Origin: Thermodesulfovibrionales bacterium
Lineage (GTDB): Bacteria > Nitrospirota > Thermodesulfovibrionia > Thermodesulfovibrionales > UBA1546
DNA: 64,000 nucleotides
Assembly: GCA_049302185.1 (NCBI GenBank)
Contig: JBAQLV010000013.1
Location: 166,084 to 230,083 of the forward strand
Direction of reading: 5' to 3'
Position numbers and translations under genes: made by a program. The notes under the pieces are model-generated. The model ran no database searches. It saw only the letters and a list, made by a program, of their open reading frames with translations, and had not been told where the DNA came from. Below are positions 15,179 to 63,400 of the stretch, piece by piece; within the stretch, counting starts at the first letter, position 1; every line of letters begins with the position of its first letter.

Positions 15179-15232
15179 GAAGTGAGAATTTAAAACTTCT
15201 TCTTACTTCCTACTTCCTATTTCTTACTTGAA
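15157..15232. repeat. (GAAGTGA)4 array, spacer ATTTAAAA, then an imperfectly complementary (TTCCTAC)4 array at the ftsL/ftsI junction
   Basis: Period-7 arrays in inverted orientation. Mismatches are mostly G/A, which would be G-U pairs in RNA. The ftsL stop codon lies inside the first array. Confidence 0.7.
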
Positions 15233-16941: not shown

Positions 16942-16950
16942 AAAGATGAA

Positions 16951-17002
16951 GAGGCAGGATATGGTATTCTCGCTCATTCTCATCCCGATAAAATCGGGAC
17001 AG
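16951..17002 (+). repeat. Copy C (partial) of the 3'-end element after ftsI (…GTATTCTCGCTCATTCTCATCCCGATAAAATCGGGAC…), followed by a second hairpin CGCCTC-N13-GAGGCG
   Basis: About 85% identity with 49990-50036 over 47 nt. Confidence 0.5.
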
Positions 17003-17067
17003 ACTCCTCCGCCTCTGCGGATTCGCCTGAGGCGAAGAGGTTTTTGTCTCTATGAAAGTGGGGATAG

Positions 17068-18642
17068 ATGAACTTGAGGATGCTTATAAAAGATATGGAG
17101 ATAAATGAAATAATAGGCAGCGCTGATGTTGATGTAACTGGAATTGCCTATGACTCAAGGAAGGTCAAGGCAGGCGATGTCTTTGTTGCCGCAAAGGGAG
17201 AAAAGCATAACGGCCATGATTTTATCAGTGATGCGGTCAAGAAAGGCGCACTTGCAGTGGTTCATGAAAAAGCAGTAAACAGTCACTACCCCCCACTGCC
17301 CCCCCTTAGTAAGGGGGGGATTGAAGGGGGGGTAGTTTTTATCTCTGTCAGTGACAGCAGGGAGGCTCTTGCGTATCTTTCCAATAATTTTTACGAGAAG
17401 CCGTCCGATAAGTTGACTGTCATTGGAGTAACCGGAACTAATGGAAAAACAACGGCAACGTATCTTATAAAGTCAATTCTTGAGGCATGGGGAAAAGATG
17501 TCGGGCTGATAGGCACTATAAATTATCTTGTGAAGGACAGGCATTATGACGCCCCTCATACCACGCCTGAGGCGCTTGAGTTTCAGGCTGTATTGAACGA
17601 GATGGTTTCAGCGGGATGCAGCCATGTAGTGACAGAGGTATCATCCCATGCGCTTGCGCAGAAGCGGGTGGACTATACGGGTTTCAGTGTTGCAGTTTTC
17701 ACAAATCTTACAAGAGACCATCTGGATTTTCATATAACGATGGAGGAATATTTCAGGGCAAAGGAAAGACTGTTTAAAGAACTTCTTTTGAAAGACGGGA
17801 CGTCTGTAATAAATTTTGACGACCCTTATGGAAGGAGATTGATCTCCGAACTCAAGACATCGCAGCAAGGCGCGGCAAATCTACGGGATTCAAAAGCTGA
17901 AAATGTGATTACATACGGCATTGAAGCAGGAGCGGATATTGTTGCAGTAAATATTAAAAACTCATTTGACGGACTCTTGTTTGATATTAATTTCAATGGC
18001 AGGACATACAATATTCAGTCGCCGCTTATAGGTACGCACAATGTCTACAACATACTCTCTGCCGTAGGCGCTGCCGTGAGCCTGAATGTGCCGTGGGATA
18101 TGATAATAAGCGGAATAAAGAATATGGGTTCTGTAAAGGGAAGATTTCAAAAGGTTGACCTCGGACAGAATTTTCTCTGCATAGTTGACTATGCGCATAC
18201 AGAGGATGCGCTTGAAAGGCTGATATGCGCCGCCAGAGAGCTTATCAGCCAGCCACCGAAGTCACGCATTATGCATCACACCCCGCGTATTATTACTGTC
18301 TTTGGCTGCGGCGGCGACAGGGACAGGGGAAAGAGGCCGAGAATGGCCGCAATAGCAACAAAACTGAGCGATTACGTTGTGATAACCTCTGATAATCCCC
18401 GCAGCGAAGAACCGATGGAGATAATAAAAGCGATAGAGAAAGGCGCATTGAGGATGAATTATACAATTGAACCCGACAGGGAGAAGGCTATTCAGAAGGC
18501 GGTGGAGACCGCAGAAGAAGGCGATATACTGCTGATTGCAGGAAAGGGGCACGAGGATTATCAGGAGATAAAAGGCGCAAGGCATAAATTCAGAGATAGA
18601 GAGATAGCGGAGAAGGCGATAAGGAGATTATGGCGATTTTAA
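17068..18642 (+). CDS. murE: UDP-N-acetylmuramoyl-L-alanyl-D-glutamate--2,6-diaminopimelate ligase MurE
   Basis: Mur ligase P-loop [10 protein letters not shown] and the DNPR motif (TSDNPRSEEP) that marks meso-DAP-adding enzymes. Contains an in-frame palindromic insert YPPLPPLSKGGIEGG. Confidence 0.9.
   Translation: MNLRMLIKDMEINEIIGSADVDVTGIAYDSRKVKAGDVFVAAKGEKHNGHDFISDAVKKGALAVVHEKAVNSHYPPLPPLSKGGIEGGVVFISVSDSREALAYLSNNFYEKPSDKLTVIGVTGTNGKTTATYLIKSILEAWGKDVGLIGTINYLVKDRHYDAPHTTPEALEFQAVLNEMVSAGCSHVVTEVSSHALAQKRVDYTGFSVAVFTNLTRDHLDFHITMEEYFRAKERLFKELLLKDGTSVINFDDPYGRRLISELKTSQQGAANLRDSKAENVITYGIEAGADIVAVNIKNSFDGLLFDINFNGRTYNIQSPLIGTHNVYNILSAVGAAVSLNVPWDMIISGIKNMGSVKGRFQKVDLGQNFLCIVDYAHTEDALERLICAARELISQPPKSRIMHHTPRIITVFGCGGDRDRGKRPRMAAIATKLSDYVVITSDNPRSEEPMEIIKAIEKGALRMNYTIEPDREKAIQKAVETAEEGDILLIAGKGHEDYQEIKGARHKFRDREIAEKAIRRLWRF
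17287..17335. repeat. Nested palindromic element copy 2 (CTACCCCCC-actg-CCCCCCC-TTAGTAA-GGGGGGG-attgaa-GGGGGGGTAG), in-frame inside murE
   Basis: Encodes YPPLPPLSKGGIEGGV. Same architecture as the copies at 7581, 26075 and 45924. Confidence 0.8.
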
Positions 18643-21105: not shown

Positions 21106-22265
21106 TTATGAGACAGTCAACAGAGCAACAGAGCAGTAGAGCAACAGAGCAGCAGTCTTTAGTACAGAAATCTTTAGCAACTGCGCTACTGAGCTACTGC
21201 GCTACTGGGCTGCTGCGTTTCTGGGCTACTGCTCTTATCTCACTGTTCGCTGTTCACTGTTCACTGTTCACTGCTTATGCTGATGAGATTTCCTCAAAGG
21301 CAGCGGTTGTTATGAAGGTTTCAACAGGAAGGGTCCTGTTTGCAAAAAATCCAAATCTGAAACTGCCTCCTGCAAGCACAACTAAACTTGTGACAGCCAT
21401 GGTTGTTCTTGACAGGGCTAAGATGAGCGATACAGTGACAATCAGTGAGGCAGCGGCAAATGTCCCCTCGCTTAAGAAGACCAAACTGAGGGCAGGAGAG
21501 ACTTTGACTGTAGAAACTCTGCTTTACGCTGCGCTTATAAGGTCGGCAAATGATGCAGCCTTTGCGCTTGCAGAGGTTGTTGCCGGCTCGGAGAAGAAAT
21601 TCGTGCAGCTTATGAACAGAAAGGCTATAGCAATAGGAGCATCCAACACAAGGTTTATAAATACTACAGGACTTCCCGGCAAAGGTCAGCATACAACAGC
21701 ATATGACCTCTCAAAGATAATGAGGTATGCGCTTAAATATCCTGTGATAAAAGAGATTATAGGCAAGAAAGAGGCAGAGATAGCTACGGAACAGGGCAGG
21801 ACTATAGCCCTTGAAAATACGAATAAACTTCTATGGTCTGATAACGGAGCAGTCGGCGGCAAGACAGGATATACGAAAGCGGCAAGGCATTGTTTTGTGT
21901 ACGCAGGCGAAAGAGAAGGAGAGATGGTGATAGTTGCTATTCTTGGAGCGCGGAGCAGAGAGATTTTATGGAATGAGGCGGAGAAGCTCGAAACAAGAGG
22001 TTTTGCTGTTATTGCAAGCAATGAGCAGCCGGTTGTTTATTTCACAAAGGCGGATTATCAAAAAAGTTCAAAGTTCAAAGTTCAAAGTTCAAAGTTAAAG
22101 ACATATTCAAAAAATAATAAAGCAAAATCAGATAAGGTTGCATCAAAAAAGAAGCTGAATAAGGCAAAGGCCACTAAAAAGTACAATGACAGCCCCGCAA
22201 AGGAGAGCAAAAGAACAAAGGATAAAGGGATCGCTAGAAACGTGGCATATGGAAATAAGGGATAA
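21102..22265 (+). CDS. dacC: Serine-type D-Ala-D-Ala carboxypeptidase (PBP5/6-like, peptidase S11) with a repeat-encoded N-terminus and a Lys-rich C-terminal tail
   Basis: SxxK (ASTTKLV), SxN (RSANDAA), KTG (GKTGYT) active-site triad. The N-terminal 60 aa and part of the C-terminal tail are encoded by heptamer tandem arrays. The true start may be internal. Confidence 0.8.
21105..21295. repeat. Series of heptamer arrays ((AACAGAG)n, (CTACTG[ACG]G)n, (CACTGTT)n) forming the first ~190 nt of the dacC-like ORF
   Basis: Period-7/8 repeats read directly from the sequence. Confidence 0.7.
22065..22100. repeat. (AAGTTCA)4-5 array near the dacC 3' end
   Basis: Period-7 repeat; encodes [10 protein letters not shown]. 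Confidence 0.7.
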
Positions 22266-23706
22266 GAAAATACTTGTTTTCGGCCTTGCAGAGAGCGGTG
22301 TTGGCGCTTCAAATCTGCTTGCCGGCCTTGGCGCAAAGGTAACGGTTACTGACAGAAAACCGAAGGAAGCGTTAATGAAATATGTTGAAAGGCTTTTGCC
22401 TGCGGTAAGGCTCAGTCTTGGCGGGCATCCTGACGGGATACTGCAAGGCGTGGATATGATAGTGCTAAGTCCCGGTGTGCCGCCTGACATACAGCCGTTG
22501 AAGAAGGCTATGGAGATTGGGATAAGGATTATCGGCGAACTTGAACTTGCGTATCAGATAATAAGTTCAAAATTCAAAGTTCAAAATTCAAAGCTTCCAA
22601 AATTTCTGGCGATAACAGGAACAAACGGTAAATCAACCACTACAACATTATTAAATGAGATGTTAAATAAAGGAGGCTTCAGGACAATTCTGGGAGGGAA
22701 TATCGGAAATGCCCTGACAGAGGAGATATTTGGATTAGTCAGAAGTCAGAAAACCGATGATGATTTTCTGATAACTCTTAACTCTCAACTCTCAACTCTT
22801 AACTACGTGGTCGCTGAGGTGTCAAGTTTTCAGCTTGAGGCGATAGAGATGTTCAGGCCTGATGGCGCATCCATACTCAATATCACACCTGACCATATGG
22901 ACAGATACCATTCAATGGAAAAATACAAAGACGCAAAGGCGCAGATATTCGCAAACCAGAGAGAAGGAGATTTTCTTGTCCTTAATGCGGATGACCCTGA
23001 GACACTCAAAGTTAGAAGTGAGAAGTTAGAAGTGAAAAGTGAAAAACCAAGAATCTATTATTTCAGCCGCAAAAAAGCGGTAGAAGGGGTCTATTTCAAA
23101 GATGGAGTTATTTATTCTAACTTCAACTCTTCACTCTTAACTCTTAACTCTCAACTTCTGCGTGCTGATGAGATAAACATTAAAGGTGTTCACAACCTGG
23201 AGAATGCCATGGCTGCTTCGGCCATGGCTCTCCTTGCAGGATGTCCGGCAGATGCAGTTATAAGCGCCTTGAAAGATTTTGAGGGGCTTGAACACCGTCT
23301 TGAACTTGTCAGGGAATTTGAAGGCGTTGATTACATCAATGACTCAAAAGGCACGAATGCAGATGCGGTGGTAAAGTCGCTTGAAAGTTTTTCAATGCCA
23401 GTAATCCTGATTGCAGGCGGAAGAGACAAAGACGGAGATTTTTCTCTTCTGAGTTCTCTCATAAAAAGCAGAGTAAAAAAACTCGTTCTCATCGGAGAGG
23501 CAAGGGAAAAAATAAAAAAAGTTCTTGGCGGACTGACAGAGACCATATTTGCAGATAATCTGGAAGAGGCTGTGATGATATCCAGAAAATCAGCATCAAA
23601 AGGCGATGTTGTGCTCCTCTCTCCCGCATGCGCAAGTTTTGATATGTTCAGGGATTACAAAGACAGGGGAGAGCAGTTTAAAAAGATTGTGAAGGGTTTA
23701 TCCTGA
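22249..23706 (+). CDS. murD: UDP-N-acetylmuramoylalanine--D-glutamate ligase MurD (with four in-frame heptamer-array inserts)
   Basis: Rossmann N-terminus [19 protein letters not shown], Mur ligase P-loop ITGTNGKSTTT. The start was moved to the ATG at 22249 ([13 protein letters not shown]). Low-complexity inserts: SSKFKVQNSKL, LNSQLSTLN, VRSEKLEVKSEK, NSSLLTLNSQLL. Confidence 0.9.
   Translation: MEIRDKKILVFGLAESGVGASNLLAGLGAKVTVTDRKPKEALMKYVERLLPAVRLSLGGHPDGILQGVDMIVLSPGVPPDIQPLKKAMEIGIRIIGELELAYQIISSKFKVQNSKLPKFLAITGTNGKSTTTTLLNEMLNKGGFRTILGGNIGNALTEEIFGLVRSQKTDDDFLITLNSQLSTLNYVVAEVSSFQLEAIEMFRPDGASILNITPDHMDRYHSMEKYKDAKAQIFANQREGDFLVLNADDPETLKVRSEKLEVKSEKPRIYYFSRKKAVEGVYFKDGVIYSNFNSSLLTLNSQLLRADEINIKGVHNLENAMAASAMALLAGCPADAVISALKDFEGLEHRLELVREFEGVDYINDSKGTNADAVVKSLESFSMPVILIAGGRDKDGDFSLLSSLIKSRVKKLVLIGEAREKIKKVLGGLTETIFADNLEEAVMISRKSASKGDVVLLSPACASFDMFRDYKDRGEQFKKIVKGLS
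22564..23157. repeat. Four separate heptamer arrays inside murD ((AGTTCAA/AATTCAA)n at 22564-22594; (AACTCTC/AACTCTT)n at 22773-22803; (GAAGTGA/GAAGTTA)n at 23010-23045; (AACTCTT…)n at 23119-23157)
   Basis: Period-7 repeats; each insertion length keeps the frame. Confidence 0.7.
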
Positions 23707-23707
23707 G

Positions 23708-24874
23708 ATGAATAAAACGTATGACAGATGGTTTTTGTTAATCACGTTTTTCCTGCTGGGTCTGGGGGCGCTTATGATATACAGTTCAACAGCAGTGGTA
23801 ACCCCGTCCATGGCAAAAAAAGACGTAACTCAGTTTTTCTATTTCAAAAGGCATTTGTTTACGATGCTGCTTGGGTTTGCGGCAATGTTTGCCGCTTACA
23901 GATTGAGGCCTGAGACTCTGAATAAGACAGCATTGCCTTTACTTATATTTTCCTTTCTGCTTCTTGTTCTTGTCTTTGTGCCGGGAATGGGAATATCGGC
24001 AGGCGGAGCAAAAAGATGGTTAAGGCTCTGGCCGTCAACCTTTCAGCCGTCTGAGTTGGTCAAGCTTTCAATGGTTATATTCCTTGCCAAATATATGTCA
24101 GCGTATAATTACAGGACAGACAGCTTTGTCTCTTTTATAAAGCCTATCGCAGTTATGGCAGTGTTTCAGGCCATATTTCTCAAACAGCCTGACTTTGGCG
24201 CTGCTATAAGCCTCGGTATTATTACACTTGCCATGTTGTTCTTTTCAGGCATAAGGATGAGATATCTGCTGTCCCTAACAGTGTTCGCAATTCCTGTAAT
24301 AGTAAAGCTTGTGCAAGAACCATACAGGTGGAAGCGCGTGACGTCTTTTCTTAATCCGTGGGATGACCCTCAGGGAAGCGGCTTCCAGCTTATACAATCG
24401 TTTATTGCCCTCGGCAGCGGAGGCATTAAAGGGGTCGGACTTGGCGAAAGCAAACAGAAGTTGTTGTTCCTGCCTGAAACCCATACTGATTTTATTTTCT
24501 CGCTTGTCGGCGAGGAACTCGGGCTGATAGGCGCAGGGGTAATTATTTTCCTTTTCGTGATGTTGTTTGTGAGGGGGATAGCCGCTACTAACAAGGCTAA
24601 GGACAGCTTTGTATATTATCTGTCTTTTGGCCTTTCAATAATGATTGCGCTTCAGGCGCTGATAAATTTCTCTGTTGTAACAGGGATGATTCCGACAAAG
24701 GGGCTTCCCCTGCCGTTTATAAGTTACGGGGGCTCAGCTCTGCTTGTGAATATGGCGGCAGTAGGCATTCTGCTTAATCTTTCAAAAGGAGAAGACAGCA
24801 GAAGAGTCGTTGACAGGACAAAAGAACTGGTAATGAGAAAAAAGGCTCTGAGGGCGGTATATGGGAAAAGATAG
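23708..24874 (+). CDS. ftsW: Cell division / peptidoglycan glycosyltransferase FtsW (SEDS family)
   Basis: About 10 TM helices and SEDS family conserved segments (PETHTDFIFS, GMIPTKGLPLPFISYGGS). Confidence 0.9.
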   Translation: MNKTYDRWFLLITFFLLGLGALMIYSSTAVVTPSMAKKDVTQFFYFKRHLFTMLLGFAAMFAAYRLRPETLNKTALPLLIFSFLLLVLVFVPGMGISAGGAKRWLRLWPSTFQPSELVKLSMVIFLAKYMSAYNYRTDSFVSFIKPIAVMAVFQAIFLKQPDFGAAISLGIITLAMLFFSGIRMRYLLSLTVFAIPVIVKLVQEPYRWKRVTSFLNPWDDPQGSGFQLIQSFIALGSGGIKGVGLGESKQKLLFLPETHTDFIFSLVGEELGLIGAGVIIFLFVMLFVRGIAATNKAKDSFVYYLSFGLSIMIALQALINFSVVTGMIPTKGLPLPFISYGGSALLVNMAAVGILLNLSKGEDSRRVVDRTKELVMRKKALRAVYGKR

Positions 24875-24934
24875 TTTAAAGTTCAGAGTTAGGAGTTTAG
24901 AGTTAAAAGGCAGTCACTGTTCATTGGAAGTTGT

Positions 24935-26032: not shown

Positions 26033-26074
26033 ACAGTGAATGATAAACAAAAGGATGCAGGATACAAGATACAA

Positions 26075-26117
26075 CCCCCCTCTATCCCCCCTTAGTAAGG
26101 GGGGAATTAAAAGGGGG
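26075..26117. repeat. Nested palindromic element copy 3 (CCCCCC-tctat-CCCCCC-TTAGTAA-GGGGGG-aattaaaa-GGGGG), intergenic, upstream of murC
   Basis: Read directly from the sequence; ends 23 nt before the murC ATG. Confidence 0.8.
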
Positions 26118-26139
26118 TATCGTGCATCATGAAGGAGCG

Positions 26140-28510: not shown

Positions 28511-29468
28511 AAAGATAGGCGTTTTAATGGGCGGCATATCCAGCGAGAGAGAGGTTTCGCTGAGAAGCGGGGGCGCGGTTTTCAATGCCCTGAAAAAACT
28601 CAGGTATAACGCTGTTGCTATAGATGCTGCGTCAAACATATGCGAGGTGTTGAAAAAAGAGAAGATTGATATAGCATTTCTTGTTCTTCACGGAGGCTGG
28701 GGAGAAGACGGCTCTATACAGGGGCTTCTTGAAGTTATGGGAATTCCTTATACAGGGTCTGATGTCATTTCCTCGGCGATTGCAATGAACAAGGCGGCGT
28801 CAAAGAAGATATTTTTTTATCACAGAATTCCATCTCCGCCATTCATAATAGTTCGGAGTTCGGAGTTCGGAGTTCGGAGTTCGTTGCAAGGATATGATCT
28901 CAAAACTCAAAACTCAAAACTCAAAACTGATTTTGAAATGCCGTGGGTTGTCAAACCTGTATGTGAAGGGTCAAGCGTTGGTGTGAGCGTAGTGAAGGAC
29001 AAAGCCCAGATTGAAAGCGCGCTCAAGAATGGTTTTTCATACGGCAACGAGATAATCATAGAAAAATACATAGAGGGCAAGGAAGTCCATATAGGGATTA
29101 TTAATGACAGGGCGCTCGGAGGTGTTGAGGTAAAGACATCACTTGAATTTTACAGCTACGAGGCAAAATACACAGCAGGTTTAACTGAATATATACTCCC
29201 TCCTAAAATAGAGGAAGCAGTGTATATGAAGGCAAAAGATATTGCCCTTTCAGCGAACAGAGCGCTCGGTTGTTCAGGAGCGACAAGGGTTGATTTGAGG
29301 ATTGATAATGACGGCAATCCCTATGTGCTTGAAGTTAACACAATACCGGGCATGACAGAAACAAGCCTCTTGCCGAAGATTGCAAAGGAGGCGGGATTTG
29401 ATTTCCCGGCGCTTGTGGAGGAGATTCTTAAAGACGCAATTGAAAGAGAGCAGAAAAGGCATAGATGA
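28497..29468 (+). CDS. ddl: D-alanine--D-alanine ligase Ddl (with in-frame heptamer-array inserts)
   Basis: ATP-grasp; N-terminal [18 protein letters not shown]; C-terminal [16 protein letters not shown]. Inserts [10 protein letters not shown] and [10 protein letters not shown] are encoded by (GTTCGGA)n and (CTCAAAA)n. Confidence 0.9.
28855..28931. repeat. (GTTCGGA)4 and (CTCAAAA)4 arrays inside ddl
   Basis: Period-7 repeats; encode SSEFGVRSS…[10 protein letters not shown]. Confidence 0.7.
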
Positions 29469-35425: not shown

Positions 35426-35500
35426 ATGATACAGGATGCAAGATACAAGATGCAGGATAAAAAACATTGTGTATCATGCATCGTGCATCATGTATCGTTA
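35426..35500. repeat. (GATACAA/GATGCAG)n array followed by a (TGCATCG/TGCATCA)n array upstream of lpxI
   Basis: Period-7 repeats in partly inverted orientation. Confidence 0.6.
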
Positions 35501-36309
35501 TGAAGACACTTGGATTGATTGCAGGGATGGGTGAACTGCCGAAGCTTGTTGCTGACGAGGCAAGGGAGAAGGGATACCGTGTTTTTGCCATCGGCCTTGA
35601 ACCTTTGGCAGACAAGGACCTCTCAGACCATGTTGATAGTGTAAAGAGAATAAGCGTAGGCAAACTTGGCGAGATAATAAATACCCTCAAGAAGAACCAC
35701 ATTAAAGAGGCTGTGATGGCAGGGAAGGTTCCCAAGTCTCTGATCTTCAAAAGCAAAGTAATTCCTGATTTAAGGGCAGTGAAACTGCTTTTTTCCCTCA
35801 AAGACAAGAGCGATGATTCCATACTCCTTGCAATTGCAAAGGAACTTGAAAAAGACGGCATCAAACTTCTTAACACAACTGATTTCAGTTCATCTTTCAT
35901 GACGCCGGAGGGAATACTCACAGATGAAAGGCTTTCTGAAAACGAATGGAAGGACATAGCATTTGGATGGAAGATAGCAAAAGAAATAGGGCGTCTGGAC
36001 ATAGGGCAGACTGTTATTGTGAAAGATCAGGCTGTTATGGCTGTTGAGGCGATAGAGGGAACAGATGAGGCGATTCTCAGGGGCGGAAAGCTTGCAGGAA
36101 AGGGTGCTGTCGTTATTAAGGTTGCTAAGCCCAAGCAGGATATGAGGTTTGATGTTCCTGTTGTTGGAATGAACACGCTTAAGTCCATGATAGAGGTTAA
36201 TGCCCGTGTCCTTGCGATAGAGGCAGGCAAAAGCATTCTCCTTCAGCGCAAGAAGATTATAAAAGAGGCTGATGAGGCAGGGATATCTGTTGTGGGGTAT
36301 AAGGAGTAG
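35500..36309 (+). CDS. lpxI: UDP-2,3-diacylglucosamine pyrophosphatase LpxI (DUF1009)
   Basis: N-terminus MKTLGLIAGMGELPKLVADEAREKGYRVFAIGL is typical of LpxI; position directly after lpxA. The start was moved to the ATG at 35500, past upstream heptamer-repeat sequence. Confidence 0.7.
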   Translation: MKTLGLIAGMGELPKLVADEAREKGYRVFAIGLEPLADKDLSDHVDSVKRISVGKLGEIINTLKKNHIKEAVMAGKVPKSLIFKSKVIPDLRAVKLLFSLKDKSDDSILLAIAKELEKDGIKLLNTTDFSSSFMTPEGILTDERLSENEWKDIAFGWKIAKEIGRLDIGQTVIVKDQAVMAVEAIEGTDEAILRGGKLAGKGAVVIKVAKPKQDMRFDVPVVGMNTLKSMIEVNARVLAIEAGKSILLQRKKIIKEADEAGISVVGYKE

Positions 36310-44806: not shown

Positions 44807-44898
44807 ATATTTACTCCTCTCTGATTGGTCTGAGCATCACAGGCAGGACATGGTATTTGAGCGGTTTTATTTTGCCGATATTCCTGAAACTTAAACAA

Positions 44899-44970
44899 GA
44901 AAAATAATGAGGCAAAATTCCTCGGAGGGCGTTAGCCCGAGAATGAGCGAAGATGCCATGTCCTGTCTTG
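44899..44970 (-). repeat. Copy B of the 3'-end element (inner hairpin GGGC-taac-GCCC, outer stem CTTCG/CGAGG, then AATTTTG), downstream of the lipoprotein gene
   Basis: Reverse complement aligns with 49982-50060 over about 70 nt, with covariation in the inner hairpin. Confidence 0.6.
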
Positions 44971-44984
44971 TGATTTCCCATAAT

Positions 44985-46013
44985 CTAAAAATCAAATGTA
45001 ACTGTCTCTGAAGGTTCGCTCTCTTTAAGCGGCCCGACAGCAGTTACCCTGTATGTGTGCTTAATCCCTGTTTTCTCTCTTAAAGTGAACGCAGGGGTCA
45101 CGGATTCTTTTACGAGGTTGAATCCGTCTTTTTCATTCACTTTATCGTAAATCCTGTATTTTGTCACCCACATCTCAGGATTTTCTTTCCATGAAATAAC
45201 GACTCTATCGTCTGCGACAACTGTTTGAAACCCTTCGGGCTTTGTCGGGATAAAGGTTGAAGGGTCAACCTTTATTTCCACTGATGCCTGTCCTTCACTC
45301 CGGAATTTCTTGCTCAAAAGACTGCGGATTGTATAATAAACAGGACTGCCTGTTTCCAGATTGTCGGAATATTTGAGCGCTGTCATCGGTTCTTTATTGA
45401 TTGGGTTGATACTGTATTTGCCTTTCTCGGCGCTTCTGTAAACATTATAAAGGATATTTTCACCTGCGCTATCCCATGAGATGTGCAGGGCATCATTGCC
45501 AACCTTGAATGAGATATTCTTCGGAGCAGGAGGAACAGCTTCAGGTTTTATTGCAATTATGTTTGAATCCTCGCTGAGGATGTTTTTCAGGCTTCCGGCA
45601 ATGAGTTTGTATTTATAAAGAGCGCCTGTCTTAAAATTAACATCTGTGTAGGAATTTTCCTCCTTGGGTACGGACGCTATTTTCTGAAAGCTGCTGTCTT
45701 CTGCCCTGAGAATATGAAATTCTTTCAGGTTTTCTTTTTTTGAAGTGTACGACCATGAGAGGAAAATTCTGTCTTCTCTGTGTATTGCCTTAACAGCCGC
45801 AGGCGCAGAGGGTTTTTCATATGCTTTGAGTGTAGGAGGTCCTTTTTTCCCGCAGGAGACAAGCATGAGGCAAGCAGCAAACAACAAAAAAGATGCACGA
45901 TACACGATGCATGATGCCTGATACCCCCCTTTAATTCCCCCCTTACTAAGGGGGGATAGGGGGGGGTTGTATCCTGCATCCTGTTTTAACTGCTGAGTGC
46001 TGACCGCTTTCAT
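44985..46013 (-). CDS. Hypothetical lipoprotein with fibronectin-III-like beta-sandwich repeats; the N-terminus is built from repeat elements
   Basis: Signal peptide plus lipobox (LMLVSCGKK). Upstream of that, the ORF reads through a nested palindrome ([15 protein letters not shown]) and a heptamer array, so the true start is probably internal. Confidence 0.5.
45924..45968. repeat. Nested palindromic element copy 4 (CCCCCC-tttaatt-CCCCCC-TTACTAA-GGGGGG-atag-GGGGGGGG), within the 5' region of the lipoprotein ORF
   Basis: Encodes [15 protein letters not shown] on the minus strand, in the same relative frame as in murE. Confidence 0.8.
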
Positions 46014-49970: not shown

Positions 49971-49981
49971 GGTTTAATTTA

Positions 49982-50060
49982 AAGACAGGACATAGTATCC
50001 TCGCTCATTCTCGCCCCGATAGGATCGGGGCTCCGAGGATTTTGCCTCATGATTTTTATA
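49982..50060 (+). repeat. Copy A of a ~75 nt conserved double-hairpin 3'-end element (AAGACAGGACAT…TCGCTCATTCTCG-[hairpin]-TCCGAGGA-TTTTGCCTCAT), immediately after the pnp stop
   Basis: Near-identical copies at 44899-44970 (reverse orientation) and 16951-17002. The inner hairpin is GCCCCGATaggATCGGGGC, nested in an outer stem CCTCG/CGAGG and followed by TTTTG. Confidence 0.6.
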
Positions 50061-50196
50061 TGGCTTACTGTCGGACTATCGGCAAAATAAGCCGCTTGGA
50101 CACTATGCCCTATCTTTTATTCTAAATATCAAAAATCGCTCTGAAGCGAACAAGCTATTACTTCTTATTGTCCGTTGTGCTTTAAGAAAGGACATT

Positions 50197-51480: not shown

Positions 51481-52272
51481 GTGAAGTTTCTTGCAGCAGG
51501 ACAATCAGACAAGGGCGTTTCAAGGTCAAACAATGAGGATAATTTTTGCGTTGATGAAGATTTGCGCCTTTTTATCGTTGCCGACGGCATGGGCGGGGCT
51601 GCGGCAGGAGAGGTTGCAAGCAGGATGGCGGTAGAGACAATAAGGGATCATGTTAAGCGTTCCTCTGGGGGTAATGAGCCTTTTTGGGGCGATTATGATA
51701 AAAGGTTCTCCGATGCATCAAACAGGATTGCATCAGGCATAAGGCTCGCCAATCAGGCGATATATGAGGCATCGCAGAGCAATGTTAAATGGCGCGGCAT
51801 GGGGACAACAGTTGCTACTGCCTTGCTTGACGGCAGTAAAATGAGCATAGCGCATGCAGGGGACAGCAGGATTTATCTTATCAGGACAAGTTCAATTATC
51901 CAGCTTACTGACGACCATTCAATAGTGTCTGAGCAGGTAAAAAGCGGACTGCTCACAAAAGAAGAGGCAGAGGGCTCTGAGGTAAGAAATATTATTACAA
52001 GGGCGCTCGGCACGATGCCTTCCGTGGAAGTTGACCTTGACGAAATAGACATTATGGATGGCGACAGGGTTGTCCTGTGCAGTGACGGACTTACAACTAT
52101 GGTTCCTGACAGCGTTATCCTTTCTACAGTTGCTGTTTCTGATGAACCTGACAGGGCATGCAGCGCACTTATTGATATTGCCAATAAAAACGGAGGAAAG
52201 GATAATATAACTGTGGCGCTTGTATATTTGTTTGAGGATAAAACTTTCCCTAAAAAGAATAGCAGTTTTTAA
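51481..52272 (+). CDS. PP2C-family Ser/Thr protein phosphatase (Stp/PrpC-like)
   Basis: PP2C motifs (FIVADGMGG, metal-binding Asp residues, LCSDGL); GTG start. Confidence 0.85.
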   Translation: MKFLAAGQSDKGVSRSNNEDNFCVDEDLRLFIVADGMGGAAAGEVASRMAVETIRDHVKRSSGGNEPFWGDYDKRFSDASNRIASGIRLANQAIYEASQSNVKWRGMGTTVATALLDGSKMSIAHAGDSRIYLIRTSSIIQLTDDHSIVSEQVKSGLLTKEEAEGSEVRNIITRALGTMPSVEVDLDEIDIMDGDRVVLCSDGLTTMVPDSVILSTVAVSDEPDRACSALIDIANKNGGKDNITVALVYLFEDKTFPKKNSSF

Positions 52273-52282
52273 TTTGCCTTTG

Positions 52283-52320
52283 CCCCGTTAGAAAGCCACG
52301 TCCTTTCTAACGGGGTTTGC
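52283..52320 (+). terminator. Intrinsic terminator-like hairpin CCCCGTTAGAAAG-ccacgtc-CTTTCTAACGGGG-TTTGC after the PP2C gene
   Basis: 13 bp perfect stem 11 nt after the stop. The stem sequence (GTTAGAAA/TTTCTAAC) is shared with the hairpin at 47483-47515. Confidence 0.6.
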
Positions 52321-52399
52321 TGCAATTCTGGCAACCTGAATGACTGTATTTTTAGAACTGCTGTTTTTGATTTTTCTGAAATACCTTAAAAGCCTGCTT

Positions 52400-52719
52400 T
52401 CAACGGACAACAGCCCTAATAATTTTCAGGATAAGTCTCACCTTGTCCTCATCAGCCTCTTTAAGTAATTTACTTATATTATCAGTCAGTTCTTTACTCC
52501 TCGACAAGTGCATAAATTCAAAAAGGTCTTTTATTTCTACATTTAATGCATTGGCTATTTTCTCCAATGTGTCAAGAGAAGGATAACTTTTCCCCACTTC
52601 TATTCGGCTTAGATGTTTTGAATCATACCCACCTTTTCTGAAAGTTCTTCCTGCGATAGTCCTTTTGCCTTTCGTAACTCCTTTATTCGTGCTCCGAGTA
52701 ATTCCTTTGTCGTTTTCAT
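52400..52719 (-). pseudogene. XRE-family helix-turn-helix regulator interrupted by a -1 frameshift
   Basis: An N-terminal frame from the ATG at 52719 gives MKTTKELLGARIKELRKAKGLSQEELSEKVGMIQNI*. The HTH continues in the next frame (DSKHLSRIEVGKSYPSLDTLEKIANALNVEIKDL…) to the stop at 52400. A single missing nucleotide near GGGTATGATTC would restore one ORF of about 105 aa. Confidence 0.5.
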
Positions 52720-52834
52720 AAGTATTTGTATGTATTCATAAAATACCGCCCCTTTATTGTGATAAAATTACTCATAACATGCATTCTTGGGAATATGTTA
52801 AAATTAATAAAATCTCTATGGGAGGTGCTGGATT

Positions 52835-53050
52835 ATGAGCAGTTCAACTATTAATAACTTGATTGAAGATTTCAGCCATCTGAAGCTTGATGATAAGGAA
52901 TATGCAGTTGATGTCATAAAAAAACAGCTTATAGACGCCAAAAGGGAAGCTATTGCCAAGAAGGCGAAAGAGGCAATAGCTAATCTTAGGAAGGGGATGG
53001 TTAAAAGAGGAACACTTAAAGAACTGTACAGGGATTTAGAGAGTGATTAA
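52835..53050 (+). CDS. Hypothetical small helical protein (71 aa), divergent from the frameshifted XRE gene
   Basis: An ORF with a plausible RBS (GGGAGG); charged helical sequence; no motif recognised. Confidence 0.35.
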   Translation: MSSSTINNLIEDFSHLKLDDKEYAVDVIKKQLIDAKREAIAKKAKEAIANLRKGMVKRGTLKELYRDLESD

Positions 53051-53271
53051 GATAACATGGGACATCAGATTCAGGGGACACCATACTTAATTCTTGAAAT
53101 ATTGAAATCTTAAATAGAGCCTATTTCCCGCATTGATATTTGCTCTTCTCCTTTAATATCAGGTTTTAGTCATTCCAGCTTTTCTTCGGCCCGGATTGAT
53201 TCCCAAATAATCTGCCAAATTCACTCAACCGAATACTTGACAATTTTACTAAGGTATTTTAAGATTTTCGT

Positions 53272-53715
53272 ATGCTGAGGTTATCCAGAAAGGGACAGTA
53301 TGGCGTAAGGGCGATGTTTGAAATAGCAAGAGGGCATGGCAATAAACCTGTTCCCATAAAAGAGATAGCTGAGAGACAGGCTGTTTCTGGTGCCTACCTT
53401 GAGCAGATACTTAATAAACTTAAAAATGGAGGACTGATACGGAGCGTTAAGGGGCCTGGGGGCGGCTATGTGCTGAGTAAGAAGCCGGAAGACGTAAGCA
53501 TCAGCGCTATCCTTAATGAACTTGAAGGCCCTGTAGCCATAACGTCCTGCCTTGACCCCGAGAAGGGATGTGTAAGGGTTGATGGATGTGTAACGTATAT
53601 GCTGTGGAAATCCCTCGGCGAAAAGATAGATGCGTTTCTCATGACTGTCACATTAAAGGACTTAATTACAGGAACGCTTTTTAAGAAGAATTTAAAATTA
53701 AAAATTAAAAGTTAA
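53272..53715 (+). CDS. iscR: Rrf2-family transcriptional regulator (IscR-like)
   Basis: N-terminal wHTH of the Rrf2 family (MLRLSRKGQYGVRAMFEIA), a three-Cys cluster region (C…C……C), and a position upstream of iscS-iscU. Confidence 0.8.
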   Translation: MLRLSRKGQYGVRAMFEIARGHGNKPVPIKEIAERQAVSGAYLEQILNKLKNGGLIRSVKGPGGGYVLSKKPEDVSISAILNELEGPVAITSCLDPEKGCVRVDGCVTYMLWKSLGEKIDAFLMTVTLKDLITGTLFKKNLKLKIKS

Positions 53716-53722
53716 AAGTGAT

Positions 53723-55924: not shown

Positions 55925-56012
55925 AACGGCAGTTAGTTAAAAGTTGAGAGTGAAAAGTGAAAAGTTTTAGAGACTCGAAACTTCTAACTTTCAACTTTAA
56001 ACTTTTAACTTA
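55925..56012. repeat. Long inverted heptamer-array hairpin (GTTAAAAGTTGAGAGTGAAAAGTGAAAAGTT-ttagagactcg-AAACTTCTAACTTTCAACTTTAAACTTTTAAC) immediately 3' of tRNA-Ser(GCU)
   Basis: Inverted repeat of period-7 units; a likely transcription terminator for the tRNA. Confidence 0.6.
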
Positions 56013-57316: not shown

Positions 57317-57406
57317 GGAGAGGTGCCAGAGAGGCTGAATGGGGCGGTCTCGAAAACCGTTGTGGGGGCAACTTCACCGGGGGTTCAAATCCCTCCCTCT
57401 CCGCCA
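57317..57406 (+). tRNA. tRNA-Ser (anticodon CGA), CCA encoded
   Basis: Acceptor GGAGAGG/CCTCTCC, anticodon loop CTCGAAA, long variable arm, TΨC GGTTCAAATCC. Confidence 0.85.
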
Positions 57407-57663
57407 TGAAAAACAGTTTAAAGTTTAGAGTTGAAAGTTAAGAGTTAAGACTAACTTACAAAATCAAGAAAGGATGGCGCTGAAGTATGGATAGGATTCT
57501 TGAAAGAAGTAAATATTTAATCTTGATTGCCATTGTCTTTGCAGCGCTTATCGCATTCAGCCATTTCAAAAGCAAGGACTGATTAGAATTCAGATGTTTG
57601 GTATCTTGACATTAAAAAGAAAAGAACCTGAACAGTGCAGTTAAAAGTTAAAATGGCCGTAGG

Positions 57664-58444: not shown

Positions 58445-61180
58445 TTGATTAATTCTAAAGGGGCATATATGCGCTGGCATCAGAAAGAGACTAAAGATAT
58501 ATTAGACGACCTGCAGTCGTCTTCAAAAGGGCTTTCTTCAGAAGAGGCGCAGAAGCGGCTGCTCGAATATGGCCCGAATGAATTAAAGGAAAAAGAAAAG
58601 AGAACTCTTTTTATGATGTTCCTTGACCAGTTCAAGGACTTCATGATTCTTGTTCTGATTGCTGCTGCAATAATTTCCGGCATTATCGGCGAACCCGCGG
58701 ATACTATAGCCATTATAGTAATCGTTGTCCTTAATGCCGTCATAGGATTTATTCAGGAATACAGGGCGGAAAAGGCTATGGCTGCCCTTAAAAAGATGGC
58801 TGCGCACACCGCCCTTGTATTGAGAGGCGGCATGCCGGCAAATATTTCCGCATCAGAAATTGTTCCGGGCGATATTGTATTGCTTGAGGCAGGGAAAGTT
58901 GTGCCTGCTGATATGAGGCTGATAGAAACCGCACAGTTGAAAGTTGAAGAGGCAGCCCTTACCGGCGAATCTATCCCGGTAGAAAAACATATAAAGGCAT
59001 TGCATGACGAGATGCTGCCGCTCGGCGACAGAAAAAATATGGCATACAAAGGCACTACCGTGTCGTACGGCAGAGGCGCCGGTATTACAGCGGCTACCGG
59101 AATGGACACCGAGCTTGGAAAGATTGCAACCATGCTTCAGGAGGAAGAAGAGGTAAAAACACCCCTTCAAAAAAGGCTCGCTGCATTTGGGAAGAAGCTT
59201 GCCATTGCGGTGCTTGCAATATGCGCCGTAGTCTTCGGCATAGGGGTTTTCAGGGGCGAACCTGCCTTGTTGATGCTCTTGACCGCCATATCCCTTGCTG
59301 TGGCAGCGATACCTGAAGCGCTTCCTGCTGTTATAACCATATCCCTTGCCCTCGGCGCAAAGAAGATGGTTAAGCAGAATGCCCTGATAAGAAAGCTCCC
59401 TGCTGTTGAGACCCTCGGCTCCGTCACATACATATGCTCTGACAAGACAGGGACGCTGACACAGAACAGGATGAGGGTGGAAGAGATATATGTGGACGAA
59501 AGAATAGTAACGAGTTACGAGTTACGAGTTATGAGTAAAGAGGAATTTGATAAACTTGTTACTTGTCACTCGTCACTTGTCACTTTTTTCAATGCCCTTG
59601 CTTTAAGCAATGACGCGAAGCCTGACAGGGATGGGAATATCATCGGCGATCCTACAGAGGTTGCTCTTTTCAATATTGCAAAAGACAAAGGTTTTGATAA
59701 GAATGAGATGGAAAATCAGATGCCGAGGGTTGCCGAAATCCCTTTTGACTCCGACAGGAAGTGCATGACGACGTTTCACAAGATACAAGATACAGGATAC
59801 AGGATACAAGATGGAAAAAATCGTGCATCGTGCATCATGAATCATGCATCTTTTATTTCTTTCACCAAAGGCGCGATTGAAGTTCTTCTGGAAAAATCAG
59901 ACGGCATCCTCAAATCAGGCGGGACAGTAAAGATAGATAGGGAAGAGATTCACAGGGTTAATGAAAGGATGGCTGCTGACGGACTGAGAGTGCTCGGTAT
60001 TGCGATGAGGGGATGGAATGAGCTTCCCTCAGACATGTCCCATGAGAATGTGGAAAGAGGACTTATAATCATAGGCCTTGTAGGCATGATGGATCCTCCG
60101 AGGGAGGAGGCAAGGGAGGCAGTGGCAATGTGCCAAACTGCAGGGATAAAACCCGTTATGATTACCGGCGACCATCCGATTACAGCATGGGCAATTGCAA
60201 GAAGGATAGGCATTATTGAGGAAGATGATGTGCACTTTAACACCATAACGGGAAGAGAACTTGAGAAGTTATCCTTACAAGAATTCGAAGAGAGGGTTGA
60301 ACATATAAGTGTTTATGCGAGGGTTGCGCCCGAGCAGAAATTAAAAATAGTAAAAGCCCTTCAGGACAAAGGTCAATTTGTTGCAATGACAGGAGACGGT
60401 GTGAATGATGCGCCCGCATTAAAAAGAGCAGACATTGGCGTTGCAATGGGAATAACTGGAACAGATGTTGCGAAAGAGTCAGCTCACATGATACTTATGG
60501 ACGATAATTTTGCGACTATTGTAAAGGCAGTAAAAGAGGGAAGAAAGATATATGACAATATAAGAAAGTTTATAAAGTACCTTCTTACAACAAACTCAGG
60601 AGAGATATGGACACTCTTCTTCGCACCCCTTGTCGGCTTGCCGATTCCGCTTCTGCCGATCCATATACTCTGGATAAACCTTGTTACGGACGGGCTCCCT
60701 GCCCTTGCCCTCTCTGCCGAGCCCGCAGAGGGAGATGTGATGAGCAGACCGCCAAGGCATCCCAAGGAGAGCATATTCGCCCACGGATTGGGGCTTCATG
60801 CCATATGGGTCGGTCTCTTGATGGGTGGAGTTGTTCTGTTTGTCCAGGCATGGGCCATCAGGACGGAACATGCTCATTGGCAGACAATGGTATTTACAGT
60901 TCTGTGCCTTACTCAGCTTGGACATGTCCTTGCCATCAGGTCGGAAAAGGAGTCATTGTTCAGGATTGGAATATTTTCAAACAAATATCTCCTCGGTGCA
61001 GTAGCATTGACCTTTGCCCTTCAGATGGCAACGATCTATATACCATTCCTGAACCCTATTTTTAAGACAGAGCCTTTGACTCTAAATGAATTAATATTTA
61101 CACTCGCCATATCATCTGTGGTATTCTTTGCAGTGGAATTAGAAAAGCTTTTCAGGAGGAAGAAATGGCTCAGGTATTGA
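58445..61180 (+). CDS. P-type ATPase, type IIA (Ca2+-transporting, PacL/SERCA-like), with in-frame heptamer-array inserts
   Basis: CSDKTGTLT phosphorylation motif, [24 protein letters not shown], 10 TM helices; 911 aa. Two low-complexity inserts ([10 protein letters not shown]…TCHSSLVT and [10 protein letters not shown]…ASCIMNHAS) are encoded by heptamer arrays. Confidence 0.9.
59497..59852. repeat. Two heptamer-array blocks inside the P-type ATPase ((GTTACGA)4 … (GTCACTT/GTCACTC)4 at 59497-59590; (GATACAA/GATACAG)5 … (GTGCATC/ATGCATC)4 at 59770-59852)
   Basis: Period-7 repeats; each block is array-spacer-(near)inverted array and in-frame. Confidence 0.7.
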
Positions 61181-62082
61181 TGGAGACTGATTTAAAGGAT
61201 ATAAAATTCCTCAGGCGCGGAAAGGTGCGCGATGTCTATGAGATAGATGACTATCTTCTGATAATAGCTACTGACAGGGTATCAGCCTTTGATGTCGTTC
61301 TTCCGAATGGAATTCAGGATAAGGGCAAAATCCTTACTCAGATATCAATATACTGGTTTAACCAGATGAAAGACATAATGGAAAACCATATTGTTGCAAC
61401 AGATGTAAAAGACTATCCAGAGGTTTTACATAAATACAAAGACATTCTTGAAGGAAGAAGCATGCTCGTTAAGAAGGCAAAGCCGATGCCTGTTGAATGC
61501 ATTGTGAGGGGGTATCTCTCAGGCTCGGGATGGAAGGAATACAAAAAATCAGGCACAGTCTGCGGCATTAAACTTCCCGATGGGCTTGTTGAATCCGCAA
61601 GGCTTGATGAGCCGATATTCACTCCAAGCACAAAGGCAGAAGAGGAGCATGACATAAACATAAGCTTTGATGAGATGAAAAAGATTGTCGGTGATGATAC
61701 TGCAAACAAGCTCAGGAATACAAGCCTCAGAGTCTATAAAAAGGCGAGGGAGATGGCAGAGAAGAAGGGAATAATAATCGCAGATACAAAGATGGAATTC
61801 GGCATATATCAAGATGCAGGATGCAAGATGCAGGATGCAAGCAGTCGGAAAGGGAAGTTGATTCTGATTGATGAAATACTCACTCCTGATTCATCACGCT
61901 TCTGGTCTATGAAGGATTATAAGCCCGGAAAAAGTCAGGACAGTTTTGACAAGCAGATTATCCGCGACTATCTTCTTACGCTTGACTGGAACCAGACATA
62001 TCCCGGCCCAAAACTTCCTGATGAAATCGTGGAAAAGACTGCTGCGAGGTATAGGGAGATATTGGGGATATTGACGGGGTAG
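61165..62082 (+). CDS. purC: Phosphoribosylaminoimidazole-succinocarboxamide synthase PurC
   Basis: SAICAR synthetase motifs ([30 protein letters not shown]); the ATG at 61165 has the RBS AGGAGG. Carries an in-frame heptamer insert ([11 protein letters not shown]). Confidence 0.9.
61801..61846. repeat. (CAAGATG/CAGGATG)n array inside purC
   Basis: Period-7 repeat encoding [13 protein letters not shown]. Confidence 0.65.
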
Positions 62083-62413: not shown

Positions 62414-63271
62414 TTATTTTTTATGTATCTCACCTATACCAATAAATGGCACAGCCCCACCGCCTGTAACCTGCGGGAGGATCCCATTCCATTTTTCTAT
62501 AGCCTTGAGATTGGCCTCTATCTTTCTAAGCTCTATAAGGTCCGGTGAAATATTTGCCCTCTGCAGCCTCAAGGACTCTGCCTCTGCCCTTGCTGTTGTA
62601 ATCCTCTGCTCTGCCTCAATCTTTATTCTATCCAGGTCTCTCTTTGACTTTAGCGCAAGCTGTTCTGCTGTCTGCTTTGACTCAATGGCTTCCATAAATA
62701 TCTTGGAGAAGCTGAAACCTACGATAGAAAAAGCGTCAACTGCTATGTTGTGCGCCAAAAGTCTTTCAGCAAGGTTTGCCCTCATTGCCTCGCTTACCGC
62801 CGGTCTCTTTGTGATAAGCTCTTCTGCTGAATACTTGGCTGTCACAGCCTTTACCACCTCCTGCACTGCAGGGTCTATGATTCGCTCTTTAAAGTGTATG
62901 CCGATGGACTGATAGACAATATTCGCCTTATCCTGAACTATATGATAGTTAAGCGCAACCTCTGAACTCACTTCCTGAAGGTCAGACGATGAAGCAGCGG
63001 CATTCGTTAAAGATTTCTGAACCTTGACATCCATTATGGCAACCTTCTGCATTATAGGTATCCTGAAATGCAGCCCTTCTCCAAGCACATCCTTCTGAAC
63101 AGCGCCAAAATTAAGGACAATCCCTCTTTGACCTGCACCAACCTGCACCCATGGATTTAAAATCAGAAAACCGACCAGAATTGCTCCAATAATCAGCGCC
63201 AGCCTCATAGGTCCTTTCTTCATTGCAGACTGCATTGCCTCCTTAGCCCTGTAAACATCTCTTTCATCCAT
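62414..63271 (-). CDS. SPFH/band-7 domain protein (stomatin/prohibitin/HflC-like)
   Basis: N-terminal TM anchor, SPFH domain (RGIVLNFGAVQKDVLGEGLHFRIPIMQKVAIMDVKVQ…), and a C-terminal coiled coil. Confidence 0.8.
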   Translation of the reverse strand: MDERDVYRAKEAMQSAMKKGPMRLALIIGAILVGFLILNPWVQVGAGQRGIVLNFGAVQKDVLGEGLHFRIPIMQKVAIMDVKVQKSLTNAAASSSDLQEVSSEVALNYHIVQDKANIVYQSIGIHFKERIIDPAVQEVVKAVTAKYSAEELITKRPAVSEAMRANLAERLLAHNIAVDAFSIVGFSFSKIFMEAIESKQTAEQLALKSKRDLDRIKIEAEQRITTARAEAESLRLQRANISPDLIELRKIEANLKAIEKWNGILPQVTGGGAVPFIGIGEIHKK

Positions 63272-63342: not shown

Positions 63343-63400
63343 AAATTATTGGAAAACTGCGGCGAGGTATAAAAAGATATTGGGGATATTGACGGGGTAA
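63343..63400 (+). repeat. Right copy of the purC-3'-end direct repeat
   Basis: Aligns with 62030-62090; see the left copy. Confidence 0.7.

Follow-up and report, generated by a model that had tools for sequence, protein, structure and literature searches.

Four kinds of small bacterial repeat come closest to the element described here. The Correia/NEMIS elements of Neisseria are miniature inverted-repeat transposable elements (MITEs) of 100-250 nt; they are non-coding, multi-copy and intergenic, are present or absent between relatives, have long terminal inverted repeats that give rise to a hairpin in the transcript, and occur nested and as mosaics. REP/BIME sequences and REPINs, which are mobilised by RAYT transposases of the Y1/HUH type, form hairpins, are built from smaller palindromes and are extragenic, with tens to hundreds of copies; they lack target duplications and are probably processed as single strands in folded form. 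ERIC/IRU sequences of enterobacteria are imperfect palindromes of ~127 nt in transcribed intergenic regions, conserved at the same site between species and suspected of RNA structure. Integron attC sites, finally, are imperfect palindromes of 57-141 nt that are recognised by their structure, with a folding bottom strand and a variable central part, and follow the preceding gene in the same orientation. We found features of all four in a repeat, here named family A, with three copies in a 64,000-nt stretch (the window) of contig JBAQLV010000013.1 from a Thermodesulfovibrionales bacterium. By the similarity of its proteins, too, the window belongs to an uncultured Nitrospirota/Thermodesulfovibrionia lineage. 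Family A is a lineage-restricted, multi-copy, structured and recently mobile non-coding element; it belongs to the broad class of dispersed intergenic palindromic repeats and is apparently undescribed.

Structure of family A

A pattern search for the 27-nt core CAGGAYATRGYATYYTCGCTCATTCTC gave exactly three matches in the window, at 16955 (+), 44939 (-) and 49986 (+), where 0 were expected by chance (100 shuffles), and bore out the shared element that a first-pass annotation of the window had pointed out. The copies are referred to as copy 1 (pnp site), copy 2 (site of a lipoprotein-like open reading frame, ORF) and copy 3 (ftsI site), and the orientation in which that annotation had written them as the reader's strand. 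As it had also stated, each copy is oriented with its upstream gene, pnp, the lipoprotein-like ORF and ftsI all being co-oriented. The repeated unit is considerably larger than the ~75 nt then proposed. Copies 1 and 2 can be aligned across ~135-140 nt, well beyond the coordinates first assigned to them: on the 3' side of the supposed U-run, an AT-rich stretch is followed by TATCGGCAAAATAA-CCGCT-(N)-CCATGTCCTG, and the ends of copy 1 pair back on each other, AAGACAGGACATAGTATCC with GGACACTATGCCCTATCTT, in a closing helix of 19 bp. The unit inserted at copy 2 comes to 162 nt. Folding energies of the full units were -54 and -44 kcal/mol (z = -6.2 and -5.6), and the 79-nt segment of the first-pass annotation, taken alone, folded modestly better than shuffles (z = -2.2). 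Copy 3, previously given as 16951-17002, spans 16946-17052 and is a 5' fragment.

A covariance model, R1, was built from 106 copies of the family. In the window it scored copy 1 at 132 bits (E 2e-36) and copy 2 at 122.6 bits, gave a weak match to copy 3 (13 bits, E=0.14) and found no fourth copy. The window is rich in other short repeats and palindromes, which could favour chance similarity or generic low-complexity palindromes as the source of the likeness; with 0 matches expected, scores of 122-132 bits and more than 100 further copies, the probability left to this explanation is negligible.

Throughout the family, the consensus reads (variable 5-8 nt) GGAYATAGTATTT-TCGCTCATTCTC-G[hairpin 1]C-TCCGAGG in the 5' part and -N[hairpin 2]N-AAWCCGCTCAA-ATACTATRTCC (variable 5-8 nt) in the 3' part. 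Every unit is an extended imperfect palindrome whose single strand folds into a three-way junction with three parts: P1, a closing helix of 17-21 bp; P2, a short helix with hairpin 1 as its cap; and hairpin 2. In the 106-copy alignment the 36 proposed pairs were 89% paired, and double-sided changes were observed in 21 of them (359 cells). The covariation score was 0.253, compared with 0.103 in shuffles (0 of 500 reached the observed value) and ~0.05 when the partners were slid. The outer part of P1 is lineage-specific and always compensated (GGCAGG/CCTGCC, GAAAGG/CCTTTC, GGCGGG/CCCGCC, TTGGGG/CCCCAA), and its sequence distinguishes genome-specific subfamilies. Hairpin 1 ranges from a 7-nt mini-hairpin to stems of 30 nt; that its sequence differs and its pairing is kept had been noticed at first sight, and is seen both in the window copies and in the family alignment. 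Hairpin 2 occurs as TTTTGCC...GGCAAAA with an AT-rich loop, as a simple hairpin, or with nested C6/G6 palindromes. Compensatory changes were found in five of the seven pairs of its stem across the family, and the same pairing appears in the covariance-model alignment. The run of U at 50040-50043, originally read as the terminal U-run of the unit, is located within this covarying stem, where TTTTGCC pairs with GGCAAAA (50081-50087). The outer stem of the first-pass annotation (YYTCG/CGAGG) stands as one of two competing pairings of CGAGG, the alternative being CTCG/CGAG directly beside hairpin 1.

The most conserved bases of family A are those of the unpaired junction, i.e. GCTCATTCT, CCGAGG and CCGCTCAA, and the helices vary and covary. 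Junction block C is at least 90% conserved despite its absence from the search pattern, and in 20 motif-independent copies the positions conserved to at least 95% are again unpaired GCTCATTCT, CGAGG and CCGC-CAA. Read from the sequence, two conserved UGAGCG boxes of the complement strand face each other beside P1 and could pair as G.A, A.G, G-C, C-G, G.A, where the reader's strand would have pyrimidine-pyrimidine mismatches. Conservation of the junction rather than the termini is the reverse of an ordinary DDE-type MITE: MITEs keep their termini and leave the interior free, whereas family A keeps its junction and varies, with covariation, in its outermost bases.

A few individual copies show further peculiarities. 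The foreign double palindrome nested in copy 3 (Table 1) recurs in a full copy, L059:3050-3238. L079:4247-4308 is a mini-copy of 62 nt made up of the P1 5' arm, TCGCTCATTCTCGCTC and the P1 3' arm; the part between the CGCTC boxes is deleted, which suggests slippage between these direct repeats. Peptide coding was considered and rejected: a single frame runs uninterrupted in some copies, but variation in hairpin length between copies shifts the frame and breaks any reading frame. Repeats of this kind break assemblies and confuse gene calls, and spurious ORFs cross the elements here. Mechanically called ORFs enter or cross the repeats at 44985-46013 (-) and 16790-17071 (+): the lipoprotein-like ORF has 342 amino acids in the window and 311 in the related contig L160, and an ORF of 93 amino acids spans copy 3. 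At family-A elements, gene-prediction programs may lengthen genes or call ones that do not exist.

Distribution and turnover

A core-motif scan of species-representative genomes gave at least 118 loci of eight kb each, which among the matches listed came from about 45 Nitrospirota/Thermodesulfovibrionia assemblies, all metagenome-assembled genomes (MAGs); the family statistics on orientation, folding and covariation were drawn from loci among the same matches. All of these but one were labelled Nitrospirae, Nitrospirota or Thermodesulfovibrionia, and the maximum for a single MAG was at least 16 copies. The exception, L040 (CAZFET010000526.1), is a contig of 1.8 kb in a bin labelled Burkholderiaceae; its copy closely resembles that of the Nitrospirae locus L025, and the contig is therefore probably mis-binned. 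A matching 3' arm was present in 118 of 125 motif matches, most cores measured 108-141 nt, and the 17-21-bp inverted repeat P1 was found in nearly all copies. In the listed loci R1 identified at least about 140 copies, including 21 without the search motif. The first-pass proposal of a dispersed element, possibly a MITE, is thus supported by more than 100 further copies of the same architecture. No R1 matches were obtained in 33 viral contigs picked by a looser motif, and these loci, being without a covariance-model match, are regarded as chance matches.

Rfam 15 yielded no matching family for the element. At the gathering score, only tRNAs were found in the whole window; in 13 loci bearing the outer shell described below, a tRNA was the sole match; around copy 1, on both strands and with E up to 10, there was no relevant match and one chance match. 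The searchable literature, queried also with the literal motif, contained no description of family A.

In the MAG of Candidatus Sulfobium mesophilum, many family-A copies are paired in convergent orientation, with 50-120 nt between the two (Table 1). The second member of these pairs is a divergent subtype (GGAGACCATCTTTTCGCTC...), and the pairs look like a composite arrangement.

Comparison with close relatives revealed empty or otherwise occupied sites at all three window positions. L160 is a syntenic metagenome contig whose genes are about 90-94% identical to those of the window at the nucleotide level. Its spacer between the lipoprotein-like ORF and panB measures 13 nt, compared with 178 nt in the window, and the alignment shows a clean insert at 44823-44984. 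Similarly, the ftsI-murE spacer is 12 nt long in L187 and L188 (MurE 91% and 82% identical) and 126 nt in the window. Among relatives with ~90-96% DNA identity in the flanking genes, the pnp-M16 site holds family A, another element (family B) or neither (Table 1). Family A is thus mobile, and all three window copies are recent gains or replacements.

Family B, of ~170 nt, was observed at the same site as family A in L160:5765-6000, L158:5778-6000, L152:1274-1500 and L153:1258-1500. It has a closing helix of its own and the boxes TTTCGCT, AAGCTCATTCC, CCTCGA...TCGAGG and GTCGCTCAAGCC, which are similar to those of family A and follow the same order; R1 matched it weakly (14 and 9.5 bits). Families A and B may form one superfamily, and the pnp-M16 site may be an insertion hot spot.

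Orientation bias and strand asymmetry

Orientation was counted from crude ORF calls around 91 copies. In 52 loci both neighbours run in the direction of the reader's strand, and in 11 both run against it (p = 2e-7); the remaining copies lie between convergent (18) or divergent (10) genes. A same-strand gene is found upstream of 70 of the 91 copies, with a median distance of 43 nt past the stop codon, and co-directional copies are located a median of 66 nt ahead of the next start.

The placement behind a same-strand gene favours a host-serving RNA module on the sense strand of the upstream transcript, spread by duplication, that would act as a partial intrinsic terminator, as a 3'-end stabiliser against exonucleases or as an RNase processing site. 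Like a Rho-independent terminator, family A has a G+C-rich hairpin near a U-run downstream of genes, and on the sense strand something like a small terminator can be read in GAGGC-UUUU-GCCUC with UCUUUAUUUU after it, or in CGAGG-N-UUUU. Where CCUC varies, the change is C-to-U, which gives G.U on that strand (few events, by reading), and at orthologous sites conservation is higher in the copies than in the adjoining coding DNA. Unlike that of a terminator, however, the U-run pairs with an A-run as one strand of a covarying stem, the GAGG/CCTC stem is just 4 bp long in both window copies, and the whole is five times larger and mobile. A U-tract after P1 (at least 5 T in 8) was detected in only 18% (+) and 17% (-) of copies, and a terminator scan found none inside the elements. 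Moreover, the 52 copies between co-directional genes stand close to the next start, including the tight ftsI-murE cluster, and the mismatches are mainly A.C, weakening the sense RNA even in the 11 antisense copies. With the U-run paired, no U-tract after P1, an empty scan and closely spaced co-directional genes, the conserved intrinsic terminator of the first-pass annotation is not supported, and we consider a host-serving module of any of the three kinds unlikely.

The two strands of family A differ in the mismatches they tolerate. Among the non-Watson-Crick positions of P1 on the reader's strand, 186 were A.C or C.A, compared with 50 G.U; the A.C positions are wobble pairs on the complement. 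In motif-independent copies the ratio was 29 to 4, and its direction was the same in every gene context (A.C/G.U 84/29 in co-directional, 19/6 in antisense, 39/3 in convergent and 21/8 in divergent copies). In 97 of 106 copies the more stable fold is that of the complement, with a mean advantage of 6.6 kcal/mol (p = 3e-17). For copy 1 the z-score against shuffles was -6.21 on the + strand and -8.15 on its complement, with similar shuffle means on both strands; for copy 2 it was -5.58 on the reader's strand and -6.46 on the complement. Local mutation bias was examined as a cause of the asymmetry. C-to-T deamination of the non-template strand or of the lagging-strand template would give the opposite asymmetry, and the direction is unchanged in antisense copies; such a bias is therefore unlikely. 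We infer from the pairing statistics a selection for folding of the complementary strand. The asymmetry between A.C and G.U would then serve as a sequence-only signature of strand-specific selection that is independent of gene context.

Selection of this kind could also act on a multi-copy small-RNA gene, or on another functional single-stranded product of the complement, in which the closing helix, the adjoining tandem G.A pairs (5'-GAGCG/5'-GAGCGA) and the purine-rich junction would make up a putative protein-binding or catalytic core. Such a product would agree with the wobble tolerance and the stronger fold that the complement shows whatever the gene context, as it would with the pairing potential of the facing UGAGCG boxes and with a conserved junction alongside variable, covarying stems, a pattern typical of functional RNAs. 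On the other hand, no recurrent promoter or terminator was found on the complement strand, in most loci such an RNA would run antisense to the genes on either side, and Rfam gave no match at E up to 10; presence/absence polymorphism and nesting in a MITE shell are, moreover, the behaviour of a mobile element. Taken together, these points make an RNA gene on the complement quite improbable. A promoter tool scan detected none in the elements. In a positional scan, TATAGT in P1 was similar to a -10 box on either strand, and TTGCC with the AT-rich loop is weakly promoter-like in about 40% of copies, which is not above the expectation for AT-rich sequence. Hammerhead, twister, pistol, hatchet and HDV ribozyme cores and the K-turn were compared by eye with the junction on both strands, and no match was recognisable.

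Candidate mode of spread and other repeats of the window

The explanation we favour, with a probability of roughly 0.6, is that family A is a non-autonomous, MITE/BIME-like repeat mobilised in trans by way of its folded single-stranded complement, and that insertions putting the strong-folding strand in host mRNA are selected against. An enzyme encoded elsewhere would copy or move the element in trans and would recognise the folded junction of one strand only, the complement of the reader's strand. Such recognition would account for the restriction of tolerated wobble pairs (G.U or G.T) to that strand, in every genomic context. Insertions would survive mostly with the weaker-folding strand in host mRNA, which would explain the 52:11 co-orientation. 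In some lineages the core would be carried within a second, generic TA-flanked MITE shell.

This shell is apparent in several genomes, where outer arms of ~40 nt enclose the core; the arms contain an inverted repeat of 18-22 bp (TTAGCCCGGATAATTCATAAAC) and each end carries TA, which was seen at both ends in outer-shell copies only. The TTA/TAA at the shell ends belong to the inverted repeat and not to a target duplication. In metagenomes the shell repeat matched 24 loci with at least six unrelated interiors, family A being present in three only. The occurrence of one repeat around at least six unrelated interiors marks the arms as a generic MITE shell, into which the core has been taken up in some lineages. 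In sediment and groundwater metagenomes, the 22-bp inverted repeat TTARCCCRGATAATTCATAAAC with TA ends was observed around at least six unrelated interiors of 150-300 nt (Table 1); its left arm carries a -10-like TATGAT box.

Set against the described systems, family A fits none completely. It differs from MITEs by the lack of a fixed-length target duplication, by the strand asymmetry of its mismatches and in that no parent insertion sequence (IS) was found in ~190 loci or in the window. A REP is a palindrome of 20-40 nt that follows a GTAG-type tetranucleotide, and the family-A consensus contains no such motif; a REPIN is an inverted REP doublet, whereas the conserved boxes of family A (CGCTCA, twice) are direct repeats, and a three-way junction takes the place of the plain REP hairpin. 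From ERIC sequences it is set apart by unrelated sequence, another phylum, a strong orientation bias and fast turnover, sites being empty or replaced at about 92% nucleotide identity. The attC boxes RYYYAAC/GTTRRRY are absent, the ends of family A reading AAAGGCAGG...CCTGCCTTT, and instead of cassettes the neighbours are syntenic housekeeping genes (pnp, panB, ftsI, murE), with no integrase nearby. As for palindrome-associated transposable elements (PATEs) of the IS200/IS605 type, which lack inverted repeats, have similar subterminal hairpins at both ends on one strand and go with TnpA/TnpB in the genome, the absent duplication and the strand-specific folding fit; the long terminal inverted repeat of family A and the dissimilarity of its two hairpins count against a match.

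Several observations weigh against mobilisation in trans as outlined above. Clustering of 763 flanking ORFs revealed no transposase or recurrent gene beside the copies; the clusters were ordinary paralog families only (histidine kinases, ABC transporters, response regulators and similar), and no Y1_Tnp-like family recurred in this clustering, which included no search aimed at RAYT. No transposase was found in the 64-kb window either. An autonomous element with family-A ends was sought in about 190 loci and in the window, as blocks A and C or two shell repeats spaced 0.5-3.5 kb apart, and nothing convincing was obtained. Flanking direct repeats of at least 5 nt were no commoner around 106 copies than in controls, and comparison of copy 2 with its empty site leaves an AG duplication at most. 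Copy 3 is flanked by ATGAAA(A)G repeats (7 nt) that are present once in the empty site; as this copy is truncated, the repeat may reflect a microhomology deletion. The outermost 5-8 bp of the inverted repeat are the least conserved, the reverse of DDE-transposon ends. Finally, two sites with orthologous flanks were compared between species: identity was 92% and 86% in the element and 75-77% and 71.5% in the flanking coding DNA. An element better kept than its flanks is less expected of a selfish insert in decay than of selection at the level of the host or of gene conversion; conservation after insertion could stem from purifying selection, from gene conversion among the copies or from hot spots at which replacement recurs.

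A bolder proposal, which we regard as unlikely, makes the three-way-junction core the active component of a mobile element of a new kind, which would propagate as the folded complement strand. The core would then be single-stranded DNA for a HUH/Y1-like or recombinase-type enzyme, or a guide or catalytic RNA, and the TA shell and the A-to-B replacement at the hot spot would be by-products. Should the junction be an enzyme recognition site or a catalytic RNA, family A would represent a new class of mobile element. Irrespective of its mode of spread, family A enlarges the repertoire of repeats in a phylum that is known almost entirely through metagenome-assembled genomes, and its fast turnover at fixed intergenic sites offers strain-level markers and hints at targeted insertion.

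Table 1. Coordinates of family-A copies, their parts and associated repeats (window positions unless a locus is named).
Feature	Position	Strand	Remarks
Copy 1	49978-50120	+	Complete family-A element in the pnp/M16 peptidase gene spacer
Copy 1, P1 5' arm AAGACAGGACATAGTATCC	49982-50000	+	Pairs with 50098-50116 in the covariance-model alignment; P1 covaries across the family
Copy 1, junction block A TCGCTCATTCTC	50001-50012	+	Includes conserved GCTCATTCT
Copy 1, hairpin 1 GCCCCGAT-AGG-ATCGGGGC	50013-50031	+	Variable in the family; four basal pairs all compensated
Copy 1, conserved TCCGAGG	50032-50038	+	CGAG pairs with CTCG at 50010-50013 (helix P2)
Copy 1, hairpin 2	50040-50087	+	TTTTGCC (50040-50046)/GGCAAAA (50081-50087), AT-rich loop of 34 nt
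Copy 1, junction block C TAAGCCGCTT	50088-50097	+	Family consensus AAWCCGCTCAA
Copy 1, P1 3' arm	50098-50116	+	Closing-helix partner of 49982-50000
Copy 2, inserted unit	44823-44984	-	Complete, 162 nt, between the lipoprotein-like ORF and panB
Copy 2, family-A core	44836-44973	-	Covariance-model match
Copy 3, 5' fragment	16946-17052	+	ftsI/murE spacer; 3' half absent
Copy 3, P1 5' arm	16950-16969	+	
Copy 3, block A	16970-16981	+	
Copy 3, hairpin 1	16982-17000	+	
Copy 3, foreign double palindrome (TCCGCCTCTGCGGA TTCGCCTGAGGCGAA)	17008-17036	+	Nested between CTCC and GAGG of the copy 3 box
Copy 3, GAGG	17037-17040	+	
Copy 3, hairpin-2 stem, 5' half	17041-17050	+	Copy ends in the hairpin-2 loop
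pnp-M16 spacer, window and L161, L162 (M16 96-97% amino acid identity)			Family A, orthologous copy
pnp-M16 spacer, L158, L159, L160, L152, L153 (M16 86-96%)			Family B element
pnp-M16 spacer, L154 (M16 81%)			219 nt, unrelated sequence
pnp-M16 spacer, L155, L156, L157 (M16 70-76%)			5-72 nt, empty
Sulfobium mesophilum convergent pairs	L098:4549-4919, L068:3268-3598, L085:7460-7777, L058:3056-3372, L039:2321-2647		
Shell loci	L164, L165, L172, L176, L184, L185 and others (L163-L186)		Armed copies e.g. L020, L073
Heptamer arrays (1)	22050-22098, 22549-22593, 24867-24906, 28835-28928, 35428-35509, 53674-53722		
Heptamer arrays (2)	55929-56010, 57400-57448, 59768-59849, 8242-8340, 15145-15195, 23009-23045		

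Other repeats were also observed in the window. A C6/G6-rich palindromic element of the CCCCCC-TTAGTAA-GGGGGG type is found at 26058-26131, 45910-45983, 17285-17331, 7578-7624 and 3506-3552. Between its two copies of 74 nt, complementarity reaches 92%; the syntenic contig L160 lacks the copy at 45883-46009, and the palindrome is nested in hairpin 2 of the family-A copies of L025, L039, L049 and L067; it appears to be another mobile repeat. In addition, there are many intergenic tandem-heptamer arrays (AGTTCAA, GATACAG/GATGCAA, AGTGAGA, AGTGAAT and similar; Table 1), often running forward and then as the reverse complement, which recall the short heptamer repeats found in tandem in cyanobacteria. 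Between the genes for a PP2C phosphatase and an Rrf2 regulator, ~0.9 kb of DNA (52272-53218) is extra relative to L160 and L158. This segment has no ORF of 80 amino acids or more, carries small ORFs on both strands and may be an inserted toxin-antitoxin or helix-turn-helix cassette of small size. Finally, a 47-nt direct repeat, 89% identical between its copies at 62035-62081 and 63353-63399, flanks a Band_7/SPFH gene (62414-63271).

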